Source of the DNA: Candidatus Rokuibacteriota bacterium
GTDB lineage: Bacteria > Methylomirabilota > Methylomirabilia > Rokubacteriales > CSP1-6
Assembly (NCBI GenBank): GCA_016179875.1
Contig: JACPCH010000021.1
Span: 1-49,815 of the forward strand
DNA length: 49,815 bases
Reading direction: 5' to 3'
The first letter of the stretch is position 1. Every line of letters begins with the position of its first letter. Both the position numbers and the translations under genes were made by a program. Below, piece after piece: positions 1-16,451 of this stretch. The notes under the pieces are model-generated. The model was not told the DNA's origin. It saw nothing but the letters and a program-made list of their open reading frames with translations, and did no database searches.

Positions 1-252
1 GTCGAGCTGGCCCCACTGGGCGAGCAGCTCGGCGATCCCCCGCTCGACCTCGGCGCGCCGGGTGAGATCCACGCCGAGCGCCAGCGCCTTCACGCCGAGC
101 TGCTCGGCCTCGCGCCGCACGACCTCGGCCGCGTCGCGATCGATGTCGAGCACGGCCACCTGCGCGCCCTCGCGCGCGAGCGCCAGCACGATGGCGCGGC
201 CGATCCCCCGGCCGCCGCCGGTGACGAGCGCGGTCTGTCCCTTGAGCTTCAC
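1..252 (-). CDS. short-chain dehydrogenase/reductase (SDR), N-terminal part only; gene runs off the left edge
   Basis: Own reverse translation from GTG 252-250 gives VKLKGQTALVTGGGRGIGRAIVLALAREGAQVAVLDID..., which carries the TGxxxGxG Rossmann motif. AGGAGG lies 6 nt upstream. It is missing from the ORF track because there is no stop inside the window. Confidence 0.8.
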   Translation of the reverse strand, partial: MKLKGQTALVTGGGRGIGRAIVLALAREGAQVAVLDIDRDAAEVVRREAEQLGVKALALGVDLTRRAEVERGIAELLAQWGQLD

Positions 253-262
253 GGCGTTCCTC

Positions 263-1033
263 CTAGCGGTCCTTCCACACGGGCGCGCGCTTCTCCATGA
301 AGGCGCGGAGCCCCTCGGCCGCGTCCTCGGTCGTCATCAGCTCGTACTGGTAGAGGGCCTCGAGCGTCGCGAGCCCCTCGTCGAACGGAAGGCCGAGCGT
401 GTCGCGCACGGCGCGCTTGGCCAGGCGCAGGACCACGGCGCTCTGGGCGCGGAAGCGCTCGAGCTCGGCGTCCACGGTCTCGGCCAGCCGCTCGGCGGGC
501 ACCACGCGGTCGGCGAGGCCGATCCGCGCCGCCTCGGCGGCGTCGATCACCGCCCCCGACAGCAGCAGCCGCAAACTCTGGGCCACCCCGATCCGCTTCG
601 GGTAGTGCAGCGCCGCGACCGGCGGGAACACGCCCACGCGGATCTCGGGCTGGCCGAACGTCGCCCCCTCGCCGGCGATCACCAGGTCGCAGAACGTCGC
701 GAGCTCCGCGCCGCCGCCGAGCGCCGCGCCGTGCACCTGGGCGAGCGTCACGCAGTCGAGCGCGCGGAGGTGGCGGAAGATCTGGTGGAAGGCGTCCAGC
801 ATCGGCTTCACGCGGTCGCCGACGTGGTCCTCGATGGCGACGCCCGCCGAGAAGGCCTTGCCCTCGCCCGCGATCACGAGCGCCTTGAGCGACGGATTCC
901 CCGCCGCGCGCGCGAGCGCCGCGTTGATCTCCTGCATCATGTCGGTCGTCAGGATGTTGAGCGGCGGGCGCGCCAGCGTGAGCCGCGCCACGTCGTACTG
1001 CTCCTGAAAGCGGATCAGCCGGGGGCCGCTCAT
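263..1033 (-). CDS. enoyl-CoA hydratase/isomerase (crotonase family)
   Basis: Same frame as ORF 263..2017, trimmed to ATG 1033-1031 (MSGPRLIRFQEQYDVARLTLARPP...). Crotonase-like stretches KALVIAGEGKAFSAGV and GAALGGGAELATFCD. The start overlaps the upstream stop (ATGA). Confidence 0.9.
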   Translation of the reverse strand: MSGPRLIRFQEQYDVARLTLARPPLNILTTDMMQEINAALARAAGNPSLKALVIAGEGKAFSAGVAIEDHVGDRVKPMLDAFHQIFRHLRALDCVTLAQVHGAALGGGAELATFCDLVIAGEGATFGQPEIRVGVFPPVAALHYPKRIGVAQSLRLLLSGAVIDAAEAARIGLADRVVPAERLAETVDAELERFRAQSAVVLRLAKRAVRDTLGLPFDEGLATLEALYQYELMTTEDAAEGLRAFMEKRAPVWKDR

Positions 1034-2343
1034 GACGGAGCACCTCCCCGGGGCCGCAGGTCCTCGACCCGCTTGGCCTTGCCCGCGCTCCGTTCGATCG
1101 CCTTCGGGGGCACCACCGTCACGTCCGCCGTGAGCCCGATGGTCTCGTGGATCCGCCGCTTCACGAGCGCGGCGGCGCCGCGCATCGCGTCCGGCCCGGC
1201 CGCCGCCACCGACGCCGTCGCCTCCACCCGCACCTCGAGCGCGTCGAGGGCGCCGTCGCGGCGCACGACGAGCAGGTAGTGCGGTTCGACGCCGGCCACC
1301 TGGGTGAGCGCGTGCTCGATCTGGGACGGGTAGACGTTGACGCCCCGGATGATGAGCATGTCGTCGGTGCGGCCGGTGATCCGGCCGATGCGCGCGAGCG
1401 TGCGCCCGCACGCGCAGGGCGTCCGGTCGAGCGTGGTGATGTCGCGCGTCCGGTACCGGATCAGCGGCAGCGCCTCCTTGGTGAGCGTGGTGAACACCAG
1501 CTCGCCCGGCACGCCGTCGGCCACCGGCTCGAGCGTCGCCGGGTCGACCACCTCCGGCAGGAAGTGATCCTCGGCCACGTGCATCCCGCGGCGCTCGGGG
1601 CACTCGACGGACACGCCCGGCCCGATGACCTCGGACAGGCCGTAGATGTTGAGCGCCATCAGGTCGAGCCGCTCCTCCAGGGCCGCCCGCATGCCCTCCG
1701 TCCACGGCTCGGCGCCGAAGAACCCGACGCGGAGCCGGAGGTCCTTGGCCGCGATCCCCGCCTCCTCGAGGGCCTCGGCCAGGTAGAGCGCGTACGACGG
1801 CGTCGAGCAGAGCACGGTCGAGCCGAGGTCCTGGAGCGCCATGAGCTGGCGCTCGGTGAACCCGCCGGAGATCGGGATGACCGCCGCCCCCACCCGCTCG
1901 GCGCCGTAGTGGAAGCCGAGCCCGCCGGTGAACAGGCCGTAGCCGTAGGCGTTCTGGACGACGTCGCTGCGGCCGACGCCGCCCATCATGAGCGTGCGCG
2001 CCATCACGTCGCTCCACGTCTGGAGGTCCCGGCGCGTGTAGGCCACGACCGTCGGCTTGCCGGTGGTGCCCGACGAGGCGTGGACGCGGACGACGTCGTC
2101 CAGCGGCACCGCCAGCAGGCCGTACGGATAGGCGTCGCGGAAGTCGGCCTTGGTGGTGAACGGCAGGCGGCGCAGGTCGTCGAGCGAGCGGAGGTCGCGC
2201 GCCGTCAGGCCGGCCGCGCGCAGCCGCTCGCGGTGGAGCGGGATGCGCTCGGCCGCAGACGCGACCGACCTTCGGAGGCGTCCGAGCTGGAGGCGCCCGA
2301 GCTCGGTCCGGGGCAGGCGTTCGGCGGCGGTCAGGTCCTTCAC
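1030..2343 (-). CDS. paaK: phenylacetate-CoA ligase family (PaaK-type adenylate-forming enzyme)
   Basis: 437-aa ORF with SSGTTGKPT, YGLSE and IIRGVNVYPSQIE motifs and the length typical of PaaK. GTG start overlaps the livF-like stop (GTGA). Confidence 0.9.
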   Translation of the reverse strand: MKDLTAAERLPRTELGRLQLGRLRRSVASAAERIPLHRERLRAAGLTARDLRSLDDLRRLPFTTKADFRDAYPYGLLAVPLDDVVRVHASSGTTGKPTVVAYTRRDLQTWSDVMARTLMMGGVGRSDVVQNAYGYGLFTGGLGFHYGAERVGAAVIPISGGFTERQLMALQDLGSTVLCSTPSYALYLAEALEEAGIAAKDLRLRVGFFGAEPWTEGMRAALEERLDLMALNIYGLSEVIGPGVSVECPERRGMHVAEDHFLPEVVDPATLEPVADGVPGELVFTTLTKEALPLIRYRTRDITTLDRTPCACGRTLARIGRITGRTDDMLIIRGVNVYPSQIEHALTQVAGVEPHYLLVVRRDGALDALEVRVEATASVAAAGPDAMRGAAALVKRRIHETIGLTADVTVVPPKAIERSAGKAKRVEDLRPRGGAPS

Positions 2344-3074
2344 GACGGCGACTCCTCTCGCGCGAGCGCGAGCCCGTAGGCGGCGCGCGCGGATTCGGCG
2401 GCCTGGCCGTTGGCCGCGGCGGTCCCGATGACTCCCCCCGGGTTCAGGACGTAGCCGCGATCGGCGATGCGGAAGGCCGCGCGGGCGTTCTGCTCGACGA
2501 GCAGGATCGTGAGCCCGCCGGCCTTGAGGACGGCCAGGGCGCGGAAGATCTCGCGGATGACGAGCGGCGCGAGCCCGATGGAGGGCTCGTCGAGCAGCAG
2601 CAGCCGTGGGCGCGCCATCAGGGCTCGGCCGATCGCGACCATCTGCTGCTCGCCGCCGGAGAGCGTGGCCGCCGCCTGGGACAGGCGCGCGCGGAGCGCG
2701 GGGAAGAGCGCGAGCACCCGCTCGAGGTCGCCCGCCAGCCCGGCGCGCCGCGCCGCGCGGCCCAGGCCGTAGGCGCCGAGCGCGAGGTTCTCGCGCACCG
2801 TGAGCGGGCCGAACAGCTCGCGCCCCTCGGGCACGAGCGCCAGGCCGCCGCGCGCGATGTCCTCGGCGGCCCGGCCGGCGAGCTCCCGGTCCTCGAAGGT
2901 CACCCGGCCCGCCCGGAGCGGCACCAGGCCCGTGATCGCCCGCAGCAGCGTCGTCTTGCCGCTGCCGTTCGGCCCGACCAGCGTGACCAGCTCGCCCGGG
3001 GCCACCCGCAGGGACACGCCGCGGAGGGCCTGGACGCGGCCGTAGAAGACGTCGAGGCCCGCGACGGCGAGCAT
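2340..3074 (-). CDS. livF: branched-chain-amino-acid-type ABC transporter ATP-binding protein (LivF-like)
   Basis: Walker A GPNGSGKTT, signature LSGGEQQ, Walker B LLLLDEPS. Confidence 0.9.
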   Translation of the reverse strand: MLAVAGLDVFYGRVQALRGVSLRVAPGELVTLVGPNGSGKTTLLRAITGLVPLRAGRVTFEDRELAGRAAEDIARGGLALVPEGRELFGPLTVRENLALGAYGLGRAARRAGLAGDLERVLALFPALRARLSQAAATLSGGEQQMVAIGRALMARPRLLLLDEPSIGLAPLVIREIFRALAVLKAGGLTILLVEQNARAAFRIADRGYVLNPGGVIGTAAANGQAAESARAAYGLALAREESPS

Positions 3075-3862
3075 CAGGCGGCCTCGTCGCCGAGGTAGGC
3101 GCCGATCACGGCCGGATCCGTCCGCACCGCCTCCGGGCGCCCCTCCGCGAGCTTCTCGCCGTAGGAGAGCACGACGACCTCGTCGGACAGCCCGAGGACG
3201 AAGTCCATGTGGTGGTCCACCAGGAGGACCGTCGCGCCGGCGTCGCGGATCGTGCGGATGATCGCGGCCAGCCGCGCCTGCTCGTCGCGCCCGAGGCCGG
3301 CGCCCGGCTCGTCGAGCAGCAGGAGCTTCGGCTCGGCGGCCAGCGCGCGGCCGAGCTCGACGAGCCGCTGCTCGCCGTACGGGAGCGCCGCCGCCGGCTG
3401 GTCGGCCCGCGCGCCGAGGCCGAGGAGCGCCAGCACGGTCTGCGCCCGGAGCCGCAGCTCCGCCTCGTCCTGGCGCGCCGCGCGCGTGCGCAGGGCGCAG
3501 GCGGCCCAGCCCGCGCGGCCCCGCCGGTGACAGCCCACCAGCACGGTCTCGAGCACGCTCATCTCGCCGAAGAGCCGCACCAGCTGGAACGTGCGCGCGA
3601 TCCCGCGGGCCGCCACCGCGTGGGGCCGCCGCACGGGGAGCGGGATGCCCTCGAACAGCACCCGCCCCCGCGTCGGCGCCAGCGCCCCCGCGATCAGGTT
3701 GAAGATCGTCGTCTTGCCGGCGCCGTTCGGGCCGATCAGCGCCTTGATCTGGCCGGCGCGCACCGCGAAGTCCACGCCGCGCACCGCGGCGAGCCCGCCG
3801 AAGTCCTTGGCGAGGCCCTGCACCTCGAGGAGCGGCGCCGGGAGCCGGGCGCCGGCGGTCAC
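3074..3862 (-). CDS. livG: branched-chain-amino-acid-type ABC transporter ATP-binding protein (LivG-like)
   Basis: Same frame as ORF 3074..4753, trimmed to GTG 3862-3860, which overlaps the livM stop (GTGA). Motifs GPNGAGKTT, LPYGEQRLVELGRAL, LLLLDEPGAG. Confidence 0.85.
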   Translation of the reverse strand: MTAGARLPAPLLEVQGLAKDFGGLAAVRGVDFAVRAGQIKALIGPNGAGKTTIFNLIAGALAPTRGRVLFEGIPLPVRRPHAVAARGIARTFQLVRLFGEMSVLETVLVGCHRRGRAGWAACALRTRAARQDEAELRLRAQTVLALLGLGARADQPAAALPYGEQRLVELGRALAAEPKLLLLDEPGAGLGRDEQARLAAIIRTIRDAGATVLLVDHHMDFVLGLSDEVVVLSYGEKLAEGRPEAVRTDPAVIGAYLGDEAA

Positions 3863-4815
3863 GCCGCCCTCCGCCCGAGGGCGCTGAGGCCGCCCGGCAG
3901 GAAGATCATGAAGGCCATCAGGAGCAGGCCGAAGACCACGATCTCGTACTCGGCCGCGCCGTGGGACACGGTCAGCAGCGGCAGGAGCGCGCGGAGCGCC
4001 TCGACGAGGCCCACGACGAGCGCGGCCCCCAGCACGGCGCCCCAGAGGCTCGCCACCCCGCCGAGCACGACCATGACCACCAGCTCGATGGAGAACGCGA
4101 AGCCGAACGGCGACGGGTTGATGAACTTCAGATAGTGGGCGTAGAGGGCGCCCGCGAGCGCCGTGACGCCGCCGGCCACGGCGAAGACGCCGAGCTTGTA
4201 GCGGGCGGTGTCGACGCCGGCCGCCTCCGCCGCCGGCTCGCTGCCGTGGATCGCGCGCAGCGCGCGCCCGACCCGCGAGTCCACCAGGTTCCCGGCGAGG
4301 CCGAGCACCAGGAGGAGCGCGCCCCACGCCAGCCACGCCATGCGCCGGTCGCTGTCGAGCTGGACGCCGCCGATCGCGAGCGGCGGGATCCCGGTCAGCC
4401 CCGACGGGCCGCCGGTGACCGACGCCCAGTTGACGAGGACGTAGTAGAGGATGATGCCGAAGCCGAGCGTCGCCATCGCCAGCAGCAGGCCCGAGAGGCG
4501 GAAGATGGGCAGGCCGACCAGGAAGGCCGTCAGGGCGCCCGCGGCCACCGCCACCGCCATGGCGACCCAGGGGTTCCAGCCGTACGACGCCGTCAGCACG
4601 CCCGACACGTAGGCGCCGATCGCGTAGAACGCCGCCTGGCCGAGCGACACCTGGCCGGCGAAGCCCATCACGAGCGACAGGGCGAGCGCCGCGATGCCGT
4701 TGAGCGCGACGAAGACGAGCGCGCTCAGCACGTACGTGGAGCGCACCGTCCACGGCACCACGGCGGCGGCGAGCCCGACGGCCAGCAGCAGCACCCAGCG
4801 CTCGCGCGCGCTCAC
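3859..4815 (-). CDS. livM: ABC transporter permease (LivM-like)
   Basis: 318-aa polytopic hydrophobic protein between LivH-like and LivG-like genes. GQVSLGQAAF motif. Confidence 0.9.
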   Translation of the reverse strand: MSARERWVLLLAVGLAAAVVPWTVRSTYVLSALVFVALNGIAALALSLVMGFAGQVSLGQAAFYAIGAYVSGVLTASYGWNPWVAMAVAVAAGALTAFLVGLPIFRLSGLLLAMATLGFGIILYYVLVNWASVTGGPSGLTGIPPLAIGGVQLDSDRRMAWLAWGALLLVLGLAGNLVDSRVGRALRAIHGSEPAAEAAGVDTARYKLGVFAVAGGVTALAGALYAHYLKFINPSPFGFAFSIELVVMVVLGGVASLWGAVLGAALVVGLVEALRALLPLLTVSHGAAEYEIVVFGLLLMAFMIFLPGGLSALGRRAA

Positions 4816-4816
4816 C

Positions 4817-5701
4817 TCAGCCCTCCTCGACCGGCACGCGCCAGGGCAGCCAGCCGGCGACCTGGACCAGACAGAGCGCGATCAGGATGACGAACGCGAC
4901 GGCGTCCTTGTAGCCGGAGGACACGAGCCCGGCGGCGAAGGCCTCGAGGACGCCGAGGAGGATGCCGCCCGCGATCGCGCCGGGCGGGCTCACCAGGCCG
5001 CCGAGGACCGCGGCCACGAAGCCCTTGAGGCCGAGCATGAGCCCCATGTCGTAGGTGGCGTAGGTGATCGGCGCGATCACGGCGCCGGCGGTGGCGCCGA
5101 GGGCGCCGGAGAGCGCGAAGGCCAGCAGGGACATGCCGTCCACGCGGATGCCCATGAGGCGCGCCGCGCGCGGGTTCACCGCGCAGGCGCGCACCGCGGT
5201 CCCCGCGTAGGTCCGCGTGAAGAAGAACCAGAGGAGCGCGAACACGAGGGCGGCGACCGCGACCACCCAGAAGGCCTGGCGCACGACCAGCGCGCCCAGC
5301 AGCGCGACGGGCGGCCCCGCCGAGAACGGGGCCAGCGCGAACGGGTCGGTGCCCCACACGACCAGCGCGCCGCCGCGGAGGGCGATCGACGCGCCGATCG
5401 TCAGGATGAGGACGGCGAGCGCCGGCGCGCGCCGGAGCGGGTGGACGGCCACCCGCTCGAGCGCGGCGGCGAGCGCGGCGACGGCCGCGACGACGAGGAC
5501 GAAGGCGGGCAGCGGACCCAGCCCCAGGCCGGTGCCGGTGACCATGCCGAGCGCGCCGAGCATCACGAACTCGCCCTGGGCGAAGTTGATGATGCGCGTC
5601 ACGCTGTACACGATCACGAAGCCGAGCCCGATGAGGGCGTAGGCGCCCCCCACCACCAGGCCCGAGGCCAGGTACTGGGCCAGCTGCTCGCCGAGGGTCA
5701 T
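4817..5701 (-). CDS. livH: ABC transporter permease (LivH-like)
   Basis: 294-aa polytopic protein with INFAQGEFVMLGA motif, typical of LivH. Confidence 0.9.
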   Translation of the reverse strand: MTLGEQLAQYLASGLVVGGAYALIGLGFVIVYSVTRIINFAQGEFVMLGALGMVTGTGLGLGPLPAFVLVVAAVAALAAALERVAVHPLRRAPALAVLILTIGASIALRGGALVVWGTDPFALAPFSAGPPVALLGALVVRQAFWVVAVAALVFALLWFFFTRTYAGTAVRACAVNPRAARLMGIRVDGMSLLAFALSGALGATAGAVIAPITYATYDMGLMLGLKGFVAAVLGGLVSPPGAIAGGILLGVLEAFAAGLVSSGYKDAVAFVILIALCLVQVAGWLPWRVPVEEG

Positions 5702-5702
5702 G

Positions 5703-6854
5703 CTACCGGGCCGGGCGCCACTGCCCGTCCACGATCTGGATCATCGTGACGGCGCGCCGGTCGAGGCCGTTGTGGTCGGTCGGCGAAAAATCGAAGACGC
5801 CGGTGATCCCGACGAAGTTCTTCGTCTGCTCGAGGGCGGCGCGCACCCGGGCGCGGTCGGCGCCCGCCTTCTCGATCGCGGCCGCCACCAGCTTGATGGC
5901 GTCCCACGCGTGCCCGCCGAAGGTGTTGCGCGGGCCGAACTTCGCCTCGAAGTCCTTCGCGTAGGCGAGCAGCACGGGCTTCTGCGGGTCCTGGTCGGCC
6001 AGGTGCTCGGCCACCAGCAGCTTGCCGGCGGGGAACACCACGCCGTTGGCCCCCGGCCCGGCCAGGTCGATGTAGCGCTTGTTGCCGACGCCGTGGCTCT
6101 GGAAGAGCGGCATCTTGAGGCCGAGGTCGGCGAAGTTCTTGGTCGCGATGGACGCCGACGGCGGAATGGACCAGACGATGACGGCCTGGGGGTTCGCGAC
6201 CTTCACGCGCGTGAGCTGCGCCGTGATGTCCACGTCCTTCTGCCCGAACTTCTCGTTGGCGACGATGGTGAGGCCCGCCTTCTGGGCGGCCTTCTCGAAC
6301 GCGAGCCAGCCGAGCTGCCCGAAGGCGTAGTCCACGTTGAGCCAGCCGACCTTCGTCAGGCCCTTGGCCTTGAGGTGGTCCACCAGCACGCCGACGATCA
6401 GCGCGTCGCTCTGGGGCGTCTTGAACACCCACTTCCGCTCGGCGGCCGGCTCGACGATCTTGGCCGCGGCCGCGCAGGAGACGAGCGGCACCTCGGCCTT
6501 CTGCACGGTATCGAGGATGGCCAGCGAGGTGCCCGAGAGCGTGGTGCCGACGATCGCGACGACCTTGTCCTCGTCGATCAGCTTCTTGGCGGCGAGGACG
6601 GCCTTGGTCTCGTCGCTCGCGTCGTCGTAGATGACGATCTTGACGGGGCGCGCCTTGCCGTCGGGGCCCTTGATCCCGCCCTTGGCGTTGATCTCGGTCT
6701 CGAGCATGGCGGCGGTGTCCCGCTCGGGGATGCCGAGCGACGAGCCGGGGCCGGTGATGGAGAAGATGGCGCCGATCTTGTACACGTCCTGGGCGGCGGC
6801 CGTGCCCGGGACGGCGAGCAGGACGGCGAGGACGAAGGCGAAAAGTGTGCGCAT
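5703..6854 (-). CDS. periplasmic substrate-binding protein, LivK/LivJ (type I PBP) family
   Basis: 383 aa with signal peptide MRTLFAFVLAVLLAVPGTAAA, then YKIGAIFSITGPGSSLG, typical of Leu/Ile/Val-type binding proteins. The ligand may be an aromatic acid given the operon context. Confidence 0.9.
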   Translation of the reverse strand: MRTLFAFVLAVLLAVPGTAAAQDVYKIGAIFSITGPGSSLGIPERDTAAMLETEINAKGGIKGPDGKARPVKIVIYDDASDETKAVLAAKKLIDEDKVVAIVGTTLSGTSLAILDTVQKAEVPLVSCAAAAKIVEPAAERKWVFKTPQSDALIVGVLVDHLKAKGLTKVGWLNVDYAFGQLGWLAFEKAAQKAGLTIVANEKFGQKDVDITAQLTRVKVANPQAVIVWSIPPSASIATKNFADLGLKMPLFQSHGVGNKRYIDLAGPGANGVVFPAGKLLVAEHLADQDPQKPVLLAYAKDFEAKFGPRNTFGGHAWDAIKLVAAAIEKAGADRARVRAALEQTKNFVGITGVFDFSPTDHNGLDRRAVTMIQIVDGQWRPAR

Positions 6855-8143: not shown

Positions 8144-8968
8144 TTAGCTCCTCGCCGCCCCGACGGCCACGGCCCCGCCCTGCGCCGTGGCCTGCGCGCG
8201 CTCCAGGGCGAACAGCGCGGCGCCGATGGCGCCCATGAAGTGTCCCTCGTCGCTCACGTTGAGGGGCGTGCCGAGCACCTCCTCGAGCGCCCGGACCATC
8301 CCGATGTTGCGCGACACACCGCCCGTGAAGGTGACCTCCTCCTCGACACCCACGCGCCGCACCAGCGACATCGTGCGGGTGGCGATGGCCTTGTGGACGC
8401 CGCCCAGGATATCCTCGATGGTCTTCTTCTGGGCGAGGTAGGACATGATGTCGGACTCGACGAAGACGGTGCAGACCGAGGTCAGGCGCACCGGGATCTT
8501 CGCCTGGAGCGCGAGCGGCCCGATCTCGTCGATGGAGACGCCCGTGACGTCGGCGGCCGCCGAGAGGAACCGCCCGGTGCCGGCGGCGCACTTGTCGTTC
8601 ATCGAGAAGTCGAGCACGGAGCCGTCCGCGCCGACCTTGATCGCCTTGGTGTCCTGGCCGCCCATGTCGAGGACGGTCCGCGTCGCCGGGAAGATGGACT
8701 GGGCGCCGCGCCCGTGGCAGGTGATCTCGGTGATCTGGGCGTCGCCGAACGTCACCTTGTAGCGCCCGTAGCCGGTGCCCACGACGTAGCCCACCGCGGT
8801 CCGCGGCAGCCCCGCGTCCTCCAATGCCTTGACGAAGGCGCTCTCGCCCGCCTTGGTGACGTTCGCGCCCGTCGCGATCAGGGACCGGCCGACGATCCGG
8901 CGCGCTTCGTCCACGATCACCGCCTTGGTCTGGGTCGAGCCGACGTCGACGCCCGCACCGTAGGTCAT
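8144..8968 (-). CDS. second, distinct BcrA/BcrD-family ATPase subunit
   Basis: Same frame as ORF 8144..9568, trimmed to ATG 8968-8966 ([15 protein letters not shown]...). Motifs [12 protein letters not shown] and TSVCTVF. The start overlaps the stop of the membrane subunit gene (ATGA). Confidence 0.85.
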
Positions 8969-9852
8969 GACGATCTCCTCTCGAGACGCAGAGTCGTGAG
9001 CGTGACCGGCCGGAGCTGGCCGGCCGTGAGGATGAGCGCGGTCTTCGCGAGCGCCTGGCCCGCGATCATGAGGGCGCCGGCCAGCGTGGCGGCGGGGACG
9101 GCGACGCCGGGCAGCGCCAGGGCCAGGGCCGCGCACAGGAACGGCGCGAGGTAGCCCCCGCCCACGATCGCCACCGCCGTCGGGCCCTCGCGGAGCGCCG
9201 CGGTCGCACGGGCGAAGCTCGCCTCGCGCGACCAGGTCACGTACGCGAGCCACGCGATCGCCCCGAGGACGAGCGTCACCAGCGTGGCGCCGAGGAGCGC
9301 CCCGCCCACCGGCCGGCCCGCCACGACCTCGACGAGCGCCAGGAGCCCGGCCCCGGAGACGGCCGCCGAGGCGAGGAACACGACCGGCATCGCGGGCACG
9401 TCCCAGGCCGCGATGCCGCGCGCGTGCCGCACGATCAGGCCCTGCGCCGCCGCGAGGAGCCCGGCCGCCGCGAGCGCGGCGACGCGGAGCGCGACCCCGG
9501 GGGCGACGAACTCGGCGGCGCAGCAGGCGGCGAAGGCGCCCCCGAGCCAGAGCTCGCGCGACATCCACGACGTGCCGACGCGCCGGAGCACGCGCGGCCC
9601 GCGCAGCGGCCGGCCCGCCTCGGCGGCGACGGCGACGAAGCCCGCCAGCACCAGCGCCGGGCCGAGCCAGGCCGCGAGCGTCACCGCGGGCCCGCCGCCG
9701 AAGCGGGCGGCCAGGACCGCCGCCGCGTAGAGCCCGGCGCCCAGGCCGCCGCAGACGAAATTCACGACCGCCGGCGGGCCCCAGAGCCGCTGGCGCACCG
9801 GCGGAATCAGCTCGACCCCTTCGCGCGTCGTCGCCATCGCCGTGGTCTCCAC
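8965..9852 (-). CDS. polytopic membrane anchor of a complex iron-sulfur molybdoenzyme (NrfD/DmsC-like)
   Basis: 295 aa, almost entirely hydrophobic helices, directly downstream of the Mo and FeS subunits. Family assignment rests on position and hydrophobicity only. Confidence 0.65.
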
Positions 9853-9853
9853 G

Positions 9854-10489
9854 TCAGTCGGCCAGGTAGAACACGGAGGGCTGGGTGCCGACCTCGGGCA
9901 TGAGCGCCACCGCCCGGCCGTCCGCGACGAGCTGCGCGACGCGGCTCGTCGGGTCCTCGAGGTCGCCGAAGACGATCGCGCCGGCGATGCAGGCCAGCGC
10001 GCACATCGGCGTCGCGTCGGGATCCACGCCGGGGACGAGCCCCTGGGCCCGGCCCGCGTCCACGCGCTCCTTGCAGAACGTGCACTTCGTCATCACGCCG
10101 TGGCGCCCGGCGTGGCCGTTGGCCTGCTCGGACGGCGTCGGCGCGTCGAAGTAGCCCCGGGCCTCGTGGACCAGGTGCCGCGCGTGGTACGGGCAGGCGA
10201 CCGCGCAGTAGCCGCACCCGACGCAGAGCTCGTACTCGACGTGGACGATGCCATCAGCGCGCCGCTGCGAGGCGCCGGTGGGACAGACGGGAACGCACGG
10301 AGGCTCGGCGCAGTGCATGCACTGCATGGGCAGGAAGACGCGCCGGACGTTCGGGTACTCGCCGATCTCGCAATCGGCCACGAACCGCCACTGGGTGCCC
10401 GCCGGCAGGCCGTGCTCCTGCATGCAGGCGATCGTGCAGGTCTGGCAGCCCACGCAGCGCCGGACGTCGATCACCATCCCCCAGCGCAT
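9854..10489 (-). CDS. 4Fe-4S ferredoxin-type electron-transfer subunit (DmsB/PsrB/NrfC family)
   Basis: Cys groups CVGCQTCTIAC, CMHCAEPPCVPVCP, CVGCGYCAVACP and CTFC. I prefer ATG 10489 (GAGGAG 6 nt upstream) over the ORF-track GTG at 10492. Confidence 0.9.
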   Translation of the reverse strand: MRWGMVIDVRRCVGCQTCTIACMQEHGLPAGTQWRFVADCEIGEYPNVRRVFLPMQCMHCAEPPCVPVCPTGASQRRADGIVHVEYELCVGCGYCAVACPYHARHLVHEARGYFDAPTPSEQANGHAGRHGVMTKCTFCKERVDAGRAQGLVPGVDPDATPMCALACIAGAIVFGDLEDPTSRVAQLVADGRAVALMPEVGTQPSVFYLAD

Positions 10490-10508
10490 CACCGGCTCCT
10501 CTTGAACT

Positions 10509-10545
10509 GGGCACGGGCACCCGGGCTATCGCCACGCCCGTGCCC
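10509..10545 (-). other. perfect 10-bp stem hairpin in the only long intra-operon gap
   Basis: GGGCACGGGC (10509-10518) and GCCCGTGCCC (10536-10545) with a 17-nt loop, between the Mo subunit stop (10602) and the FeS subunit start (10489). Confidence 0.5.
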
Positions 10546-10601
10546 CGCCGCGATCACCCGCTGCGATCGCTCGTCCACCCGATCAGAGCCGCAACCCCGC
10601 A

Positions 10602-13334
10602 TCAGAGTCTCCGCACTGCCACGGGGACGAGGTCGGCGCCGCTGCCGGTCGCGTCGGTGAGCGCCAGATCCATGCTCGAGACCTCGTTCAGGCTGGGCAT
10701 GCCGAGGTCGCGCGCGAACGGCGTGGCCCAGTGGCCGAACTGCTGGAGCGCGACGGCGACGTCGGGCCGCACGCCCTCGCGCAGGATCGCGCGCCCCTGC
10801 GTCCGTCCCGTCGGCGACTCGATCTCGACCAGGTCGCCGTCGGCGATGCCGAGCTTCTCGGCGGCGCGCCGGTTGAGCATGACGCCGAAGTGCCCCTTCA
10901 CGTTCTTCGCGACGTCGGCCAGGATCGGGAGCGACACGTTGGAGCCCCAGGAGTACTGCATGCTCCGGCTCGTCAGCAGCCAGAACGGGAACTCGCGCGC
11001 GTCGCGCCCGTGGGCCGCGGCGGTGCCCCGCCAGATCTCCGGGAAGTCCTTCCACGTCGGCAGCGGCTGGTACTCGTCGAGCTGGACGTCCCACCACTTG
11101 ATGCCGCGCTCGTGCAGGCGCGCCGCCAGCTCCTCGCCCATGCGCTGGATCCGCTCCTGGTAGGGCAGCTCGTAGCGCAGCCCCTGGGCGCGCATCGTCG
11201 TGTGCAGGAAATAGTTCTTCGTCGCGAACGGCACGAACCAGGCGCCGTGCCGCTTGAACCACTCGAGATCGTGCTCCTCCCGGCCGCCGGACAGCGAGCG
11301 CGTCGCCGCGCGGCATACCCGGTCCCAGATCTCCGCGGCGACCGGCAGCCGCCCGTTCTTGATCGAGTAGTCGTAGCCGTCGCCCGCGAGCGGCACCGTG
11401 GTGCCCGAGCCCCGGTTCACCGCCTGGAGGTACTCGTCGAGGAGCCCCACGCGGGCGGCCAGCTCGGTGGCGACGTCGGTGAGGTCACGCGTGTCGTACG
11501 GCGGCGCCGTCACCGGCTGGCGCAGCGCCCAGCCGGAGTGCTGCCAGTACTGCTCGGTGTACTTGGTCCCGCCGATGCGGTAGAGCTGGAGCGACTCGAG
11601 ATCGGTCGCCTCGGGCAGGAGCAGGTCCGCGTACCAGTTGGTCTCGTCCTGCGTGTAGGCGAAGGCCGCGACGAACGGGAAGCGCTCGAGCTCCCGCTCG
11701 ATCCGCCCCGTCTCCCAGTTCGAGATCGCGGGGTTCGTCCGGTAGATGATCCAGACGTCGGGCAGGGTCGGCGCCGGCCAGTGCTCCGGCGCATCCTCCA
11801 GGAAGAGCCACGGCAGGTGCGCCGGGCCGAGCGCCGCCGACCACGGCGAGTCGTCGGCCAGCGGCACCAGCGTGCGGTAGGCGTTCCTGACGTGTGGGGA
11901 CGCCTGCCACTTCTCCCGCGACGTCGGGTTGAGCGGCTGCTCCATGAAGCCGTCGGGGCCCGGCTTGACCGAGTCGAGCCGGTTCTGGGCCGGCCGGTTC
12001 AGGCGCACGGTCGTCCCGAGGATGCCGCCGGGGACCTCGAGCGCCCCGACGAGCGCCGCCAGCAGCGTGCGGGCCCAGCAGCACTCGTAGCCGCCCCAGC
12101 CGTTGGTCACCGTCTTGCCGAGCAGCACGGCGACGGGCCGGTGGGGATAGCTGACGCCGTCGATCTCGATCGTGGCCCCGACGCGCGCCGCCGCGAGGTA
12201 CTCGCCGGCGATGCGGCGGATCGTCGCGGCCGGCACGTCGGCGATCTCCGCCGCCCACTCGGGCGTGTAGGACCGCACGTGCTCGACGAGGCGCTCGAAG
12301 GCCGGGCGCACGCGGTCGCTGACGCTCCGGCGGGCGCCGTCGGCCCCGACCTCGACGCCGGAGGCGATGTACTCGCCGACCAGCGCCGGACGCGCGCACG
12401 CCGGGTCGTCGAACGGCACCGCGCGCTCGCGGTCGAGGTCCCACACCAGCGGCTTGCCGCTCCCGGGGTCGCGCAGGTAGTAGCCGCCGGGGCCGACGAG
12501 GTAGGGCGAGCCCGTCATCCGCTCGAGGAACGGCACGTCGCACACGTGGCGCCAGTCGTGCTCGATCAGGATCGCGTGGAGCAGCGCGAAGAGCACGGCG
12601 GCGTCGGTCTTCGGACGGACCGGCACCCACTCACCGGCGCCGGCGCCGGTGATCGAGAGATGCGGCTCGAGCTGCACCCAGCGGAGCCCGCGCGCGCGCG
12701 CCTCGGCGTGGCGCCAGACGCCGGTCACGCCGCCCGAGGCGTCGCCGTTGTAGCCGAAGGACAGCACGTAGTCGCAGCGCGGCACGTCGGCGGCGACGGT
12801 GAAGGCGCGGTGCCAGAACTCGCCGTAGAGGTGCTCGGAGTGGTAGCACTTCACGCCCTGACCGCTGCCGATGCCCTGGTCCAGCGGCCCCCACGCCGCC
12901 AGGAGCGCCGCGAACGTGCCGAGGTAGGCCGGCGCGATGCCGCCGGAGCCGAACGTCACCGCCAGGCGCGGGTAGCCCGCCGCGTCCACCAGCCCCGCCG
13001 CGCGGAGCGCGCGGAGCTTGCCGGCCAGGAGGTCGAGCGCCGCGTCCCACGACACCGGCGCCCAGCCCGGGTCCTCCCCGCGCGCCTTCCGCGGATTGGT
13101 GCGGACCATCGGCGTCTTGATGCGCGCGGGGTTGTAGAGCTTCTGGACGAGGCCGTAGGCGCGCACGCACACCTTGCCGCCCGCCGGGTGCTCGGCGGCG
13201 ACGTCGCTGTTCGGCTCGACGCCGACCGCGACGCCGTCCTTGACGATGACCTTCAGGAGGTCCGGGCCCGCCACGCACTGGTAGCAGTAGACCGGCACCT
13301 TCTCGATGGTCGGCGTGGCCGCGGATTTGTTCAC
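10602..13334 (-). CDS. molybdopterin (bis-MGD) oxidoreductase catalytic subunit, DMSO-reductase superfamily, no Tat signal (PadB-like candidate)
   Basis: Same frame as ORF 10602..14570, trimmed to GTG 13334-13332, which overlaps the upstream stop (GTGA). 910 aa. N-terminus VNKSAATPTIEKVPVYCYQCVAGPD...GGKVCVRAYG has a CxxC...C cluster motif and no RR/hydrophobic signal. Molybdopterin-oxidoreductase-like throughout, with a C-terminal beta-barrel-like GDLVEIESPTGR. Confidence 0.9.
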   Translation of the reverse strand: MNKSAATPTIEKVPVYCYQCVAGPDLLKVIVKDGVAVGVEPNSDVAAEHPAGGKVCVRAYGLVQKLYNPARIKTPMVRTNPRKARGEDPGWAPVSWDAALDLLAGKLRALRAAGLVDAAGYPRLAVTFGSGGIAPAYLGTFAALLAAWGPLDQGIGSGQGVKCYHSEHLYGEFWHRAFTVAADVPRCDYVLSFGYNGDASGGVTGVWRHAEARARGLRWVQLEPHLSITGAGAGEWVPVRPKTDAAVLFALLHAILIEHDWRHVCDVPFLERMTGSPYLVGPGGYYLRDPGSGKPLVWDLDRERAVPFDDPACARPALVGEYIASGVEVGADGARRSVSDRVRPAFERLVEHVRSYTPEWAAEIADVPAATIRRIAGEYLAAARVGATIEIDGVSYPHRPVAVLLGKTVTNGWGGYECCWARTLLAALVGALEVPGGILGTTVRLNRPAQNRLDSVKPGPDGFMEQPLNPTSREKWQASPHVRNAYRTLVPLADDSPWSAALGPAHLPWLFLEDAPEHWPAPTLPDVWIIYRTNPAISNWETGRIERELERFPFVAAFAYTQDETNWYADLLLPEATDLESLQLYRIGGTKYTEQYWQHSGWALRQPVTAPPYDTRDLTDVATELAARVGLLDEYLQAVNRGSGTTVPLAGDGYDYSIKNGRLPVAAEIWDRVCRAATRSLSGGREEHDLEWFKRHGAWFVPFATKNYFLHTTMRAQGLRYELPYQERIQRMGEELAARLHERGIKWWDVQLDEYQPLPTWKDFPEIWRGTAAAHGRDAREFPFWLLTSRSMQYSWGSNVSLPILADVAKNVKGHFGVMLNRRAAEKLGIADGDLVEIESPTGRTQGRAILREGVRPDVAVALQQFGHWATPFARDLGMPSLNEVSSMDLALTDATGSGADLVPVAVRRL

Positions 13335-14641
13335 CGGCTCGCCTCGGCCGGCGGGGCCCCAGCCCCGCGACGGCCTGCGGCTCGCACGACCACCTTCTTG
13401 TGCTCCAGGGCTTCGAAGAACGCGTCGATGCGGTTCTTGAGCTGCGCCTCGGCGTAGTAGCGTGGGTCCTCGAGGTCGGACTCCACGAGGAGCGTCGACA
13501 CGCCGAGCTCGCGCGTGAAGTAGTCGCGCATGTCCCCCTGCCCGGCCGAGAACAGACGGCACGACTTGATCGAATGGATGACGAGCGCGTCGGCGTCCCA
13601 TTCCTCCACGTAGCGCCGGATCTGCTGGTAGCGCGTCGTGATCGACCGGTTGGTGAGGTTCTCGCGCAGCATCTGCTCGGCGATGGACTCCAGCGGCCGC
13701 GCCGGGTCGTGACGGAAGCCCCACTCCCAGATGCCGCCCACCGTCGAGTACGTGGACTGCACGGCCACCGCGCCCCACTTGGCGAACAGGTTGCGGAAGT
13801 TCTTGTAGTAGGGATACGGCGGCGGGCCCTCGACGACGGTGCGGAACCGCTCCTCGGACAGGGGCCCGAGCCCCTGGGCCACCAGCCCCTCGAACTCGGC
13901 CACCGCCACGTCGAAGAAGTCGGCGACTTCCTTCGTGCCGCGGAGCACGTTGATCGGCCCCATCAGGTTGATCGAGTCGAAGTAGGAGTCGAAGGGCGCC
14001 GGCTTGTGCTTGCACAGGTGCTTGCAGCGCGAGTAGCCCTCCTCCGCCCGGATCGAGTAGCCGATGATCTCCCGGAGCTCGTCGATGTCGAACTTCTCCC
14101 CGGTCACGCCCTCGCAGAGGGCGATGAGCTCGCGGAGCTGGCCGACCACGTACTGGATGTCGGCCGGGCTCGGCTCGGCGGCGCGCAGGAACGGCACGTC
14201 GAGCATGAAGAGCTTGGCCCCGCTGATGTCGGCCAGGTGCTCGAACCACTTCACGTACACGTTGCAGCCGACGTAGTTGCAGACGATCAGGTTCGGGAAC
14301 GGCATGGGCTTGCCGGGCCCCATGCCCCCTTCCAGGAACAGCCCGATGTCGGCCTTCACGTAGGCGCAGTTGTCGCTCGAGTACCCCGCCTGCTCCGCCT
14401 TGAGGATGAGCGGCAGCGACTTGTGGCGGATCGCGTTCTGGAGCGCCGTGACCTCCGGGAACATGGGCAGGATGTGGCAGGCCCGCAGCAGCTCGACGCA
14501 GTTGCCCGAGATCATGATCGCGCCCGTGGGCCGCCCCTCGGCCTCGGCCCGGCCGAGCTCGCCCATCCACGCCGACATGAGCCGGCGCGAGTCCTCGTGG
14601 ACCTTGCCCTGGTACTGCCGTTCCGTCACCTGAGCCGGCAT
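13331..14641 (-). CDS. benzoyl-CoA reductase subunit B-like (BcrB/BadE/BzdO; 2-hydroxyacyl-CoA dehydratase superfamily)
   Basis: Same frame as ORF 13331..14722, trimmed to ATG 14641 (GGGAGGA upstream). 436 aa, MPAQVTERQYQGKVHEDSRRLMSAWM...SIKSCRLFSAGQGDM...LLVESDLEDPRYY, with length and motifs as in BcrB-type subunits. Confidence 0.85.
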   Translation of the reverse strand: MPAQVTERQYQGKVHEDSRRLMSAWMGELGRAEAEGRPTGAIMISGNCVELLRACHILPMFPEVTALQNAIRHKSLPLILKAEQAGYSSDNCAYVKADIGLFLEGGMGPGKPMPFPNLIVCNYVGCNVYVKWFEHLADISGAKLFMLDVPFLRAAEPSPADIQYVVGQLRELIALCEGVTGEKFDIDELREIIGYSIRAEEGYSRCKHLCKHKPAPFDSYFDSINLMGPINVLRGTKEVADFFDVAVAEFEGLVAQGLGPLSEERFRTVVEGPPPYPYYKNFRNLFAKWGAVAVQSTYSTVGGIWEWGFRHDPARPLESIAEQMLRENLTNRSITTRYQQIRRYVEEWDADALVIHSIKSCRLFSAGQGDMRDYFTRELGVSTLLVESDLEDPRYYAEAQLKNRIDAFFEALEHKKVVVRAAGRRGAGAPPAEASR

Positions 14642-14658: not shown

Positions 14659-15813
14659 CTAGTCGAAGAGCATCGATTCGACGAAGGTCTCGATCTCGTT
14701 GCGCGTGCGCTCGAACGTCCACATCTTCTCCTCGAACTCGACGATCATGTGCGGGATGCCCGCGCGCTCGAGCCCCTGCTTCATCAGGACGTAGTCGAAC
14801 AGGGCGGGCTCGCAGAACTTGGCCGGCATGAAGACGACGGCCTGCGCGTTTGCGCGCCGGACCTTCTCGATGAGCCCCGTCGAGCGGTGCTCGCGGCCCT
14901 CGTGACGCACCGACGACGGCACCGCCTGGTTCACGTAGGCCGCGCCCAGGCGCTCGAAGGGATCGCCGTCGCCCGCGACGTCCGCGGTGAACCAGCGCCA
15001 GCCCAGCATCAGGTCGTCCTCGACGACGTAGCAGCCGGCCTCTTCCAGCACCTCGAGCAGGCCGAGCGGCGGCTGCTCGCAGAACGCCCCCTCGACGACC
15101 ACGCGCAGGCGGTCGCGGGGCCGCGCGTCGCGCAGCCGGAGCCCGGCCAGCAGGTCGTCCAGCCAGCCGATCGCGTCCTCGGGCGGCGCCAGCGTCGCCG
15201 CCCGCAGGGTGACGTACAGATCCGTGGTCGAGAGCCGCTGGGGCTCGGCGATGCGGAAGGCGTAGAGCGCGCGGACGCGCGCGCGCAGCGCGTTGTAGGT
15301 CTCGATGGACTTCGCGAGCGCGGGCTCCGTCACCTTGAGCCCGAACGCGCCCTCGAAGCCCTGCGTGAGCCGGCGCAACTCGCTGGCCGCGTAGCCGGCG
15401 ACGCCCGGCGACGTCGAGTTCTGCGGCAGGTGCAGATACTCGACGAATACGTCCGGGAAGTTGCGGTGGTAGATCGAGCTGAGGTTGCGCGCGACGTCAC
15501 AGATGTTCGAGAACACGAACCCGTCGATGCCCTTGACGATGTCCTGGAAGCCGAGCTCGAGGGTGGACTTCGCGATCGAGCACACGAAGGACTGGAACCG
15601 CGCGTCGGCGTGCGTGAGCTCGACCGAGGTGCCGCCGCCCAGGAGCGACAGCGGGAGCATGCCCGCCGCGTGGATGAGCTCGGCCGGGGCCCACACCGGG
15701 TACGCCGCGACGGCGCGCCCGCCCGGATGGGCGGCCTTCCACCGCTCGGCGACGGCGCCGAGGGGCCGGGCGACGAGCTCGCGGCACTGGTCGAGGATCT
15801 GCTCAGGCGTCAT
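14659..15813 (-). CDS. benzoyl-CoA reductase subunit C-like (BcrC/BadD/BzdN)
   Basis: 384 aa, 2-hydroxyglutaryl-CoA dehydratase D-component fold, motifs FQSFVCSIAKS and FMPAKFCEP. Paired with the B-like subunit. Confidence 0.85.
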   Translation of the reverse strand: MTPEQILDQCRELVARPLGAVAERWKAAHPGGRAVAAYPVWAPAELIHAAGMLPLSLLGGGTSVELTHADARFQSFVCSIAKSTLELGFQDIVKGIDGFVFSNICDVARNLSSIYHRNFPDVFVEYLHLPQNSTSPGVAGYAASELRRLTQGFEGAFGLKVTEPALAKSIETYNALRARVRALYAFRIAEPQRLSTTDLYVTLRAATLAPPEDAIGWLDDLLAGLRLRDARPRDRLRVVVEGAFCEQPPLGLLEVLEEAGCYVVEDDLMLGWRWFTADVAGDGDPFERLGAAYVNQAVPSSVRHEGREHRSTGLIEKVRRANAQAVVFMPAKFCEPALFDYVLMKQGLERAGIPHMIVEFEEKMWTFERTRNEIETFVESMLFD

Positions 15814-16396
15814 GGCGCGCCTCCGCTGGTTCGAGGAAGCCGTAGAGGAAGAGGGAGCCGACCTGGGCCGCGAGCGCGCGCGCGTCGTCGCGCGAGCGGA
15901 CGAACGGCCGGGTCGCGATGCCGTTCAGCATGCCGAGGAGGAGATTGGTCGCCGACAGGAGCTCGTCGCCCGACCGTCCGTGCGGGTCGAGCTCGCGCAG
16001 GACCCCGAGCCCGCGCTGGACGTAGTCGCCGCGCTTGGCCGCGACGTCCGAGCGGCGCGGCTCGGGCAGGAGCTCCCAGTCGCGGTTGATGACCTTGAGC
16101 GCCGGACCGTGGCGGAAGCCGAAGTCGAGGTGCGTCTGGATCAGGGCGAGGAGCTTCAGCTCCGGGGTGCGCGCCCGCGTCAGGGCCTCGTCGAGCGCGC
16201 CGATGAGCGTGTCGAGCGACCGGTCGAGGACCAGGAAGAGCAGCTCATCCTTGCCGCCGACGTAATGGTAGAGGCCGGCGAGCGAGAGGCCGGCGGCGCG
16301 GGCGATCTCGCGGATCGAGGCCTGGTGGAAGCCGCGCCGCGCGATGGCCTCGGTCGCCGCCTGGAGGATCTCGTTGTATCGCTCCTCGATCGCCAC
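15803..16396 (-). CDS. TetR/AcrR family transcriptional regulator
   Basis: HTH FHQASIREIARAAGLSLAGLYHYVGGKDELL. I start it at GTG 16396 (TAGGAGG 6 nt upstream), not the ORF-track start at 16417. The stop overlaps the bcrC-like start by 11 nt. Confidence 0.9.
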   Translation of the reverse strand: MAIEERYNEILQAATEAIARRGFHQASIREIARAAGLSLAGLYHYVGGKDELLFLVLDRSLDTLIGALDEALTRARTPELKLLALIQTHLDFGFRHGPALKVINRDWELLPEPRRSDVAAKRGDYVQRGLGVLRELDPHGRSGDELLSATNLLLGMLNGIATRPFVRSRDDARALAAQVGSLFLYGFLEPAEARHDA

Positions 16397-16451
16397 ACCG
16401 AACCTCCTACCGAACACGAATTCGAATTACGCGTACGGTAGTCGGTTCGGT
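16397..16451 (-). promoter_or_regulatory. long inverted repeat overlapping the tetR ribosome-binding site
   Basis: 16-nt arms ACCGAACCGACTACCG / CGGTAGGAGGTTCGGT (14 of 16 complementary) flank a 23-nt AT-rich centre that contains CGAATTCG. The proximal arm includes the TAGGAGG SD and abuts the GTG start. Confidence 0.5.

Follow-up and report, generated by a model that had tools for sequence, protein, structure and literature searches.

The window analysed here is a stretch of 49,815 nucleotides from an uncultured groundwater bacterium, Candidatus Rokuibacteriota, of the phylum Methylomirabilota. It is contig C156 (JACPCH010000021.1) of a metagenome-assembled genome (MAG; GCA_016179875.1) that comprises 3.33 Mb in 288 contigs, is 77% complete and has a G+C content of 73%. 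Between position 16417 and the start of the contig, the genes of the minus strand form a single compact string in which neighbours overlap or lie 0-15 nt apart, the exception being a 109-nt spacer between two of them (Table 1). Within this string, three consecutive genes encode a molybdopterin (Mo) catalytic subunit, an iron-sulfur (Fe-S) subunit and a membrane anchor, which together form a putative phenylacetyl-coenzyme A (CoA):acceptor oxidoreductase of the PadBCD type. They lie between two pairs of genes for proteins that resemble the subunits of ATP-dependent benzoyl-CoA reductase. The phenylacetate-CoA ligase family gene that the initial annotation had assigned to the same operon does share this minus-strand run with the trio.

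The Mo subunit has the N-terminus VNKSAATPTIEKVPVYCYQC and a calculated mass of 100.1 kDa. Its GTG start codon overlaps the TGA stop codon of the bcrB-like gene (GGTGA), and a longer in-frame open reading frame (ORF) at 10602-14570 is an artefact of the high G+C content, since it traverses bcrB in another frame. This agrees with the initial annotation, which had noted that any upstream extension would run into the bcrB-like gene. Homologues of the Mo subunit align from residues 1-14, and in one relative the gene starts 30 nt past bcrB. The first Cys residue is preceded by 16 residues only, which is too short for a twin-arginine translocation (Tat) leader, and the absence of a twin-arginine motif noted earlier from the sequence extends to all 83 related loci, none of which has a Tat leader. 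A crude search of upstream frames for RRxFL did flag 10 of these 83 loci, and the hits were rejected as non-coding GC-rich translations or as RR pairs directly before the Cys motif. The N-terminal motif reads C17-x2-C20-x2-G-P-D25...C56, with Asp where CX2CX3C has its third Cys. The noncanonical motif described in the initial annotation is thus an Asp substitution, and the C-x2-C-x2-GPD form is found in every one of the 83 loci, while more distant relatives retain CX2CX3C and some of them have RR leaders. A further residue, C163, is invariant across the family and is likely the Mo ligand.

The Fe-S subunit starts with MMRWGMVIDVRRCVGC, has neither a leader nor a transmembrane segment, and has a mass of 22.9 kDa. 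It is 212 residues long if translation begins at the GTG codon and 211 if it begins at the next ATG, so that of the subunit sizes first given (910, 211 and 295 residues) the first and last stand and the middle one depends on the choice of start codon. The protein probably carries four [4Fe-4S] clusters, for which its 17 Cys residues suffice. It gave below-cut-off matches to NCBIfam models of the DsrO, TtrB, QrcC and ArrB types, and it is 50-60% identical to the product of the gene that follows padB in 69 loci. The spacer upstream of its gene holds GC-rich hairpins and a ribosome-binding site, AAGAGGAG. The predicted folding of the spacer was no better than that of shuffled sequences (z of -1.38, not significant), and the spacer is absent in some relatives, as in locus L009, where padC starts 2 nt after padB. 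One contig from an RNA library joins position 10492 to position 10618 and omits the roughly 125 nt in between, an indication that there are relatives without the padB-padC insert.

The anchor, with a mass of 29.5 kDa, was modelled with AlphaFold from an alignment of 46 homologues, and the model has eight transmembrane helices and a predicted local distance difference test score (pLDDT) of 92.3. Its best matches in the PDB by Foldseek were ActC (8k9e_C and 6lod_C) and PsrC (2vpw_C), with a probability of 1.00, and the template-modelling (TM) scores against PsrC were 0.61/0.71; the model thus points to a PsrC/NrfD fold. Matches to Pfam NrfD (PF03916; 28.8 bits, cut-off 25.8) and DmsC (PF04976; 25.8 bits, cut-off 22.3), scored for the protein as a whole, covered short stretches only, and there was no NCBIfam match. 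The anchor is 37% identical to Thauera PadD across 164 residues in the first half of the protein, and in 72 loci the Fe-S gene has a gene for a homologue after it.

With loops delimited by the helices of the model, Lys and Arg residues are concentrated on one side of the anchor, with a mean of 14.1 for the N-terminus, loops 2, 4 and 6 and the C-terminus versus 0.7 for the other loops, and the bias runs in the same direction in all 46 PadD homologues. The anchor of a relative that bears a Tat signal (L109) served as an internal control, and by a cruder, hydropathy-based helix assignment it was biased oppositely, with 12 such residues in the odd loops versus 7 in the even loops. By the positive-inside rule, the termini and the conserved GRPxR...SWMSRE loop of the PadD-like anchor are predicted to be cytoplasmic. 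Together with the absence of export signals, the charge bias supports the prediction that the catalytic dimer docks on the cytoplasmic face of the membrane. Docking on this face would fit a CoA-ester substrate, which requires a cytoplasmic active site. The SoeABC enzyme of Allochromatium vinosum is a cytoplasm-facing sulfite:quinone oxidoreductase in which a Tat-less Mo/Fe-S dimer sits on an NrfD/DmsC-type anchor. It offers a precedent for the orientation of the trio with a different substrate; no Soe model was among the NCBIfam matches of the window proteins.

To which family does the trio belong? NCBIfam has no model for PadB, PadC or PadD, and none of its models claims the Mo subunit. The best matches of the Mo subunit were to PhsA (163 bits, cut-off 694) and ArrA (140 bits, cut-off 1600), TtrA gave 45 bits (cut-off 1750), and its sequence matches in the PDB were likewise partial (6cz7, E 1.6e-32). 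One possibility is therefore that the trio is an ordinary periplasmic, Tat-exported reductase of polysulfide, thiosulfate, tetrathionate or arsenate (Psr, Phs, Ttr or Arr type), which would be in keeping with these named matches and with the PsrC fold of the anchor. The trio does share its superfamily and subunit plan with PsrABC, PhsABC and ArrAB(C) (PDB 2vpw and 6cz7); the anchor model superposes on PsrC and the first 270 residues of the Mo subunit align with ArrA and PsrA. The PhsA and ArrA scores, however, amount to a quarter or less of the cut-offs and come mainly from residues 6-270. Whereas those enzymes are exported by the Tat system and face the periplasm, neither soluble subunit here has a Tat leader, the charge bias of the anchor is reversed and Asp replaces the third Cys. 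Given also that the tree described below places the Mo subunit inside the PadB group, identity with the Psr/Phs/Ttr/Arr types is refuted at the sequence level, and we give a periplasmic reductase of this kind next to no credence.

The homologues closest to the Mo subunit are instead Tat-less proteins of the PadB type. Relatives number in the thousands in a large protein collection, and the nearest, at 80-97% identity, come from Rokubacteria-type bins and are named phenylacetyl-CoA:acceptor oxidoreductase by the Joint Genome Institute (JGI). In an exhaustive search, the nearest full-length representative of a 50%-identity cluster was a Thauera protein of 917 residues with 59% identity. This reference is an orthologue from a Thauera sp. 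rather than one of the biochemically studied sequences of T. aromatica K172 or EbN1, and its trio (917, 215 and 301 residues) adjoins genes for a PaaX regulator and for Mo-cofactor maturation proteins (XdhC, MobA-like and FdhD). A second reference point is a Rhodocyclaceae locus (L061) whose Mo subunit is 60% identical to that of the window. There, the Mo, Fe-S and anchor genes are followed in canonical order by genes for PadE, PadG, PadH, PadI and PaaK, all of which score above the NCBIfam cut-offs (320 bits versus 300, 728 versus 700, 551 versus 475, 814 versus 700 and 705 versus 646, respectively). The layout padBCD-padEFGHI-padJ is known from Thauera, Azoarcus and Aromatoleum, and the Pad pathway is defined as PadJ, PadBCD and PadEFGHI (PMC4453571; PMC5109826).

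A maximum-likelihood tree of 40 sequences grouped the Methylomirabilota proteins and a single Tectomicrobia sequence in a clade that is sister to the PadB clade of the Pseudomonadota. The two clades share a node with an SH-like approximate likelihood ratio (SH-aLRT) support of 100 and a long stem, and the Tat-bearing relatives and a 36%-identical paralogue from the same genome fall outside this node. A scan of one genome per species found a relative in at least 593 genomes. Among 69 loci from outside the phylum, 31 have paaK in the flanks of the trio, eight have padG- and padI-like genes, and eight have bcr-like genes.

The trio thus resembles PadBCD (EC 1.17.5.1) of Thauera aromatica, Azoarcus evansii and Aromatoleum aromaticum EbN1 in having the same three types of subunits with matching sizes, in lacking an export signal, in the C-x2-C-x2-GPD motif and in the linkage to genes for a PaaK-type ligase and the benzoyl-CoA pathway. 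The subunits of the Thauera enzyme are reportedly 93, 27 and 26 kDa, compared with 100.1, 22.9 and 29.5 kDa for those of the window. Identities are 59-60% for the Mo subunit and 50-60% for the Fe-S subunit but only about 25-37% for the anchor. The window system also differs in its host, which belongs to the Methylomirabilota/Rokubacteria and not to the Pseudomonadota, and in its position in a separate sister clade. Its trio is nested between bcrCB and bcrAD rather than placed ahead of padEFGHI-padJ, and the genes for phenylglyoxylate oxidation are unlinked and divergent here, or substituted in a relative. From these comparisons, we regard the trio as a member of the PadBCD family and an orthologue in the broad sense, with phenylacetyl-CoA as the presumed substrate. 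The PadBCD-like identity suggested in the initial annotation is thereby upheld, and the comparison with PhsA-, TtrA- and ArrA-type models set out above came down on the same side.

Table 1. Genes and features of the minus-strand gene string in the window (contig C156).
Feature	Coordinates	Strand	Basis
TetR-family regulator, first gene of the string	15803..16417	-	Pfam TetR_N and TetR_C_24
bcrC-like, 384 aa	14659..15813	-	TIGR02263, Pfam HGD-D
bcrB-like, 437 aa	13331..14644	-	TIGR02260
PadB-like molybdopterin (bis-MGD type) catalytic subunit, 910 aa	10602..13334	-	Pfam Molybdopterin, Molydop_binding
padB-padC spacer, 109 nt	10493..10601	-	Sequence, fold
PadC-like Fe-S subunit, 212 aa	9854..10492	-	Pfam Fer4_11 and other Fer4
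PadD-like membrane anchor, 295 aa	8965..9852	-	Pfam NrfD/DmsC (weak), model
bcrA-like ATPase subunit, 268 aa	8144..8950	-	TIGR00241, Pfam BcrAD_BadFG
bcrD-like ATPase subunit, 266 aa	7339..8139	-	TIGR02261, Pfam BcrAD_BadFG
GNAT acetyltransferase, 151 aa	6870..7325	-	Pfam Acetyltransf_1
Liv-type ATP-binding cassette (ABC) uptake system	2340..6854	-	ORFs and translations
Liv-type binding protein	5703-6854	-	Matches branched-chain-type solute-binding protein models
Liv-type permeases	4817-5701 and 3859-4815	-	
Liv-type ATPases	about 3074-3860 and 2340-3074	-	
PaaK-family aryl-acetate-CoA ligase, 437 aa	1030..2343	-	TIGR02155
Enoyl-CoA hydratase	263..1030	-	TIGR03189, Pfam ECH_1
Short-chain dehydrogenase start (TGGGRGIG motif), cut by contig end	1..258	-	Translation

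The ligase matched the PaaK model TIGR02155 with 554 bits (E 1e-166, cut-off 646) and is 49-58% identical to the products of Pseudomonadota paaK genes that come after padBCD. The hydratase had its best match in cyclohexa-1,5-dienecarbonyl-CoA hydratase (TIGR03189, 176 bits, cut-off 292), and the pair of hydratase and short-chain dehydrogenase genes (ECH and adh_short) is likewise present in L009. At the other end of the string, the TetR gene overlaps the start of the bcrC-like gene by 11 nt, and its position is conserved in relatives. In relatives, too, the GNAT gene follows bcrD, and it marks the conserved end of the bcr/pad cassette; we take it to be reminiscent of BadL in the bad cluster of Rhodopseudomonas palustris. 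Beyond 16.4 kb, the window holds unrelated genes, including those for a P-type ATPase, an Rrf2 regulator and a haem-copper oxidase.

The four genes that enclose the trio encode proteins that matched the Thauera-type BcrB, BcrC, BcrA and BcrD best, ahead of models for 2-hydroxyacyl-CoA dehydratases. The bcrB-like product scored 316 bits with TIGR02260 (cut-off 487) versus 162 for HadB, and the bcrC-like product 308 bits with TIGR02263 (cut-off 421) versus 181 for HadC. For the bcrA-like product, TIGR00241 gave 251 bits, which is above its cut-off, and the BcrA (197 bits, cut-off 578) and BzdQ (176 bits) models gave scores below theirs; the bcrD-like product had 186 bits with TIGR02261 (cut-off 313). 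Compared with the class I benzoyl-CoA reductases BcrCBAD and BadDEFG, the locus has four neighbouring subunits of the right families, but the pad trio separates their genes into two pairs, and ~200 residues at the N-terminal end of the model have no counterpart in the bcrA-like subunit. We refer to these neighbours as Bcr-like proteins of the apparent ATP-dependent class I type and not as a confirmed benzoyl-CoA reductase.

The nested order raises the question of whether the trio has a more direct relationship with the reductase. The initial annotation had offered as an alternative that the trio is a quinol-linked partner of the reductase. On this account, the trio would not oxidise a substrate here but would be a membrane module connecting the Bcr-like reductase with the quinone pool or with the membrane, as an electron donor or anchoring partner in one complex with BcrCBAD. 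The trio does sit between bcrCB and bcrAD, with a start/stop overlap with bcrB and no ferredoxin gene seen in the operon. Moreover, the order TetR-bcrC-bcrB-Mo-FeS-anchor-bcrA-bcrD-GNAT recurs in L009 and in nine of 11 related species-level loci of the Methylomirabilota, a set in which contig ends cut some loci short. The order is not fixed, however, as bcrA and bcrD precede the Mo and Fe-S genes in L027 (bcrA-bcrD-Mo-FeS), and the nested loci are close kin (76-86% identity in the Mo subunit), so that one ancestral insertion would explain their arrangement. Of the 69 loci from outside the phylum, 61 have the trio but no bcr genes, and in 24 the trio is directly followed by paaK, which leaves the idea of a quinol-linked partner without support. 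The catalytic subunit also retains the family-invariant residues, including C163, and quinol electrons have much too high a potential to serve a class I benzoyl-CoA reductase. We consider an electron-supplying or anchoring role for the trio improbable. On a related reading, the seven genes bcrC-bcrB-padB-padC-padD-bcrA-bcrD would encode a single membrane-anchored assembly in which the ring reductase is coupled physically or electronically to the Fe-S/quinone module of PadCD. Rokubacteria would then have a novel means of providing or discarding electrons during dearomatisation; we judge such an assembly similarly improbable. Since the trio mostly stands without bcr genes outside the phylum, we read the nesting as co-regulation at the level of the pathway and see in it no evidence that electrons pass from the trio to the reductase.

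A route from phenylacetyl-CoA to benzoyl-CoA also needs an enzyme that oxidises phenylglyoxylate, and the search of the rest of the genome for phenylglyoxylate:acceptor oxidoreductase genes that had been proposed at the outset did yield a candidate. Contig C205 of the same bin (3.8 kb, positions 1-3838) carries padF-, padG-, padH- and padI-like genes in the canonical order. The predicted PadG and PadI proteins are 46% identical to those of the Rhodocyclaceae locus L061, and the PadI-like protein, whose gene is cut by the contig end, carries a fused ferredoxin domain. In a Rokubacterial relative (L023:16343-20649), a four-subunit 2-oxoacid:ferredoxin oxidoreductase of the Por/Vor type is encoded between the GNAT and paaK genes in place of the ABC transporter. 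This enzyme could be a phenylglyoxylate:ferredoxin oxidoreductase, in which case it could yield reduced ferredoxin for the ring reductase. In the genome of the window, which is 77% complete, the queries used found no Por genes of the L023 type. On another contig of the same genome (C88:2056-3545, L003), a gene for a protein like the N-terminal ferredoxin domain of PadI (92 bits) is followed by one for a PadH-like flavoprotein (32% identity), and this pair has no adjacent subunits of a 2-oxoacid oxidoreductase.

Several observations count against a phenylacetyl-CoA route of this kind and have to be set against the evidence from the trio. The padF-, padG-, padH- and padI-like products of C205 score 78, 392, 205 and 334 bits, which is about half of the curated cut-offs. 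The contig is tied to the genome by binning only, and its G+C content is 75.7% versus 72.6 +/- 1.5%. Its padH-like gene is split by a frame change between about positions 2001 and 2036, which is either an assembly indel or a sign of a pseudogene. The queries used also found no padE-like gene in this 77%-complete genome; such a gene would lie beyond the end of C205. PadI-like genes occur in four of the 121 sampled genomes of the phylum, compared with 29 for PadB-like genes, and none was found in a genome of the same genus (G057) that is 93% complete; the other three PadI-positive genomes are all PadB-positive. Within the operon, PaaK, the four Bcr-like subunits and the hydratase all fall below their equivalog cut-offs, and no ferredoxin gene for the reductase was evident. 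Lastly, 59-60% identity and a sister-clade position leave the substrate specificity of the trio unfixed.

It is possible that the enzyme has the same architecture and chemistry, that is, alpha-oxidation of a CoA thioester with transfer of electrons to quinone, but acts on 4-hydroxyphenylacetyl-CoA or another aryl-acetyl-CoA, in which case a correspondingly substituted benzoyl-CoA would be the substrate of the interleaved reductase. The Methylomirabilota proteins branch separately, as a sister clade with only about 60% identity, PaaK (554 versus 646 bits) and all Bcr-like subunits fall short of the equivalog cut-offs, canonical PadI-like genes are rare in the phylum, and the operon of L023 has a different, Por-type oxidoreductase. 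The operon, however, holds no sign of a substituted ring, for instance a gene for a dehydroxylating enzyme, and the match of the ligase to the PaaK model, together with its likeness to paaK products encoded after padBCD elsewhere, argues for phenylacetate. We look on a different aryl-acetyl-CoA as an unlikely alternative, though the likeliest of those considered.

With a probability of roughly three in four, we favor the reading that the trio is a membrane-bound, PadBCD-type phenylacetyl-CoA:acceptor oxidoreductase in a route from aryl-acetate to benzoyl-CoA. The homology, the set of subunits, the lack of export signals, the fold and charge bias of the anchor and the gene linkage lead us to this reading, from which we infer the substrate, quinone as the acceptor, the types of clusters and the activities of all the enzymes. 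The ABC system would import an aryl-acetate, most likely phenylacetate, for activation by the PaaK-type ligase. The PadB-like subunit would then oxidise the alpha-methylene group of the CoA ester at its Mo-bis-pterin site in the cytoplasm, with water as the oxygen donor, to give phenylglyoxylyl-CoA and then phenylglyoxylate. The four electrons released may pass from the Asp-substituted N-terminal Fe-S cluster through the four clusters of the PadC-like subunit to quinone at the PadD-like anchor, whose PsrC/NrfD fold would be inserted with the docking face toward the cytoplasm. A 2-oxoacid oxidoreductase, for which the padFGHI-like set of C205 is the candidate here and the Por-type enzyme the candidate in L023, would convert phenylglyoxylate to benzoyl-CoA. 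The interleaved BcrCBAD-like reductase would dearomatise benzoyl-CoA in an ATP-dependent reaction, and the hydratase and short-chain dehydrogenase encoded downstream would carry the pathway on.

The Mo enzyme occurs in 29 of the 121 genomes sampled from the phylum, or about a quarter. Near-identical DNA is present in groundwater metagenomes, the best match among which is probably the sample of origin, and 13 studies contributed more distant copies from metagenomes of soil, sediment and drinking water. In two metatranscriptome libraries from sediment, contigs cover parts of the operon with 90-100% likeness, and some differ by 0-3 nt over 190-260 nt. The sediment contigs give a weak hint that the operon is transcribed; carry-over of DNA is possible, and such contigs cannot rank expression.

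Two further loci hold relatives of the Mo subunit. Contig C116 of the same genome (662-11393, L110) encodes a second Tat-less Mo enzyme, of 851 residues and 36% identical to the PadB-like protein, which retains CX2CX3C in its canonical form and has an Fe-S subunit of its own. Genes for a UbiD-family (de)carboxylase, a Mo enzyme of the xanthine dehydrogenase family, a luciferase-like monooxygenase and a 2-oxoglutarate (2OG) oxygenase lie on its flanks, and the locus may be another cluster for an aromatic compound. In a Syntrophales MAG (L108:5769-10380), a 38%-identical relative with an RR leader adjoins genes for a TctABC transporter and is followed, in place of a membrane anchor, by a flavoprotein with Pyr_redox_2 and Rubredoxin_C domains and an Fe-S subunit. 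This locus appears to be a different, undescribed variant of the superfamily.

The enzyme family itself is already known, and the JGI pipeline names close homologues correctly. What is unusual is the host phylum and the order of the operon, bcrC-bcrB-padBCD-bcrA-bcrD, which about ten genomes of related species preserve. The distribution among Rokubacteria and the recognition of the Asp-substituted first cluster and the predicted reversed topology of the anchor as hallmarks of the family are modest new points. To our knowledge, there is no solved structure of a PadBCD enzyme, and it has been little studied since 1999. The Asp-for-Cys cluster and the cytoplasm-facing anchor with the PsrC fold provide concrete hypotheses for PadBCD. 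We found no literature that links Rokubacteria or Methylomirabilota to the metabolism of benzoyl-CoA or phenylacetate beyond incidental co-mention. The locus described here would extend the anaerobic Pad route and the ATP-dependent ring reductase to Methylomirabilota/Rokubacteria, an uncultured phylum that is common in groundwater and soil. It suggests that these bacteria are capable of facultatively anaerobic degradation of aromatic acids, and it points to a substrate that enrichment cultures could be given.

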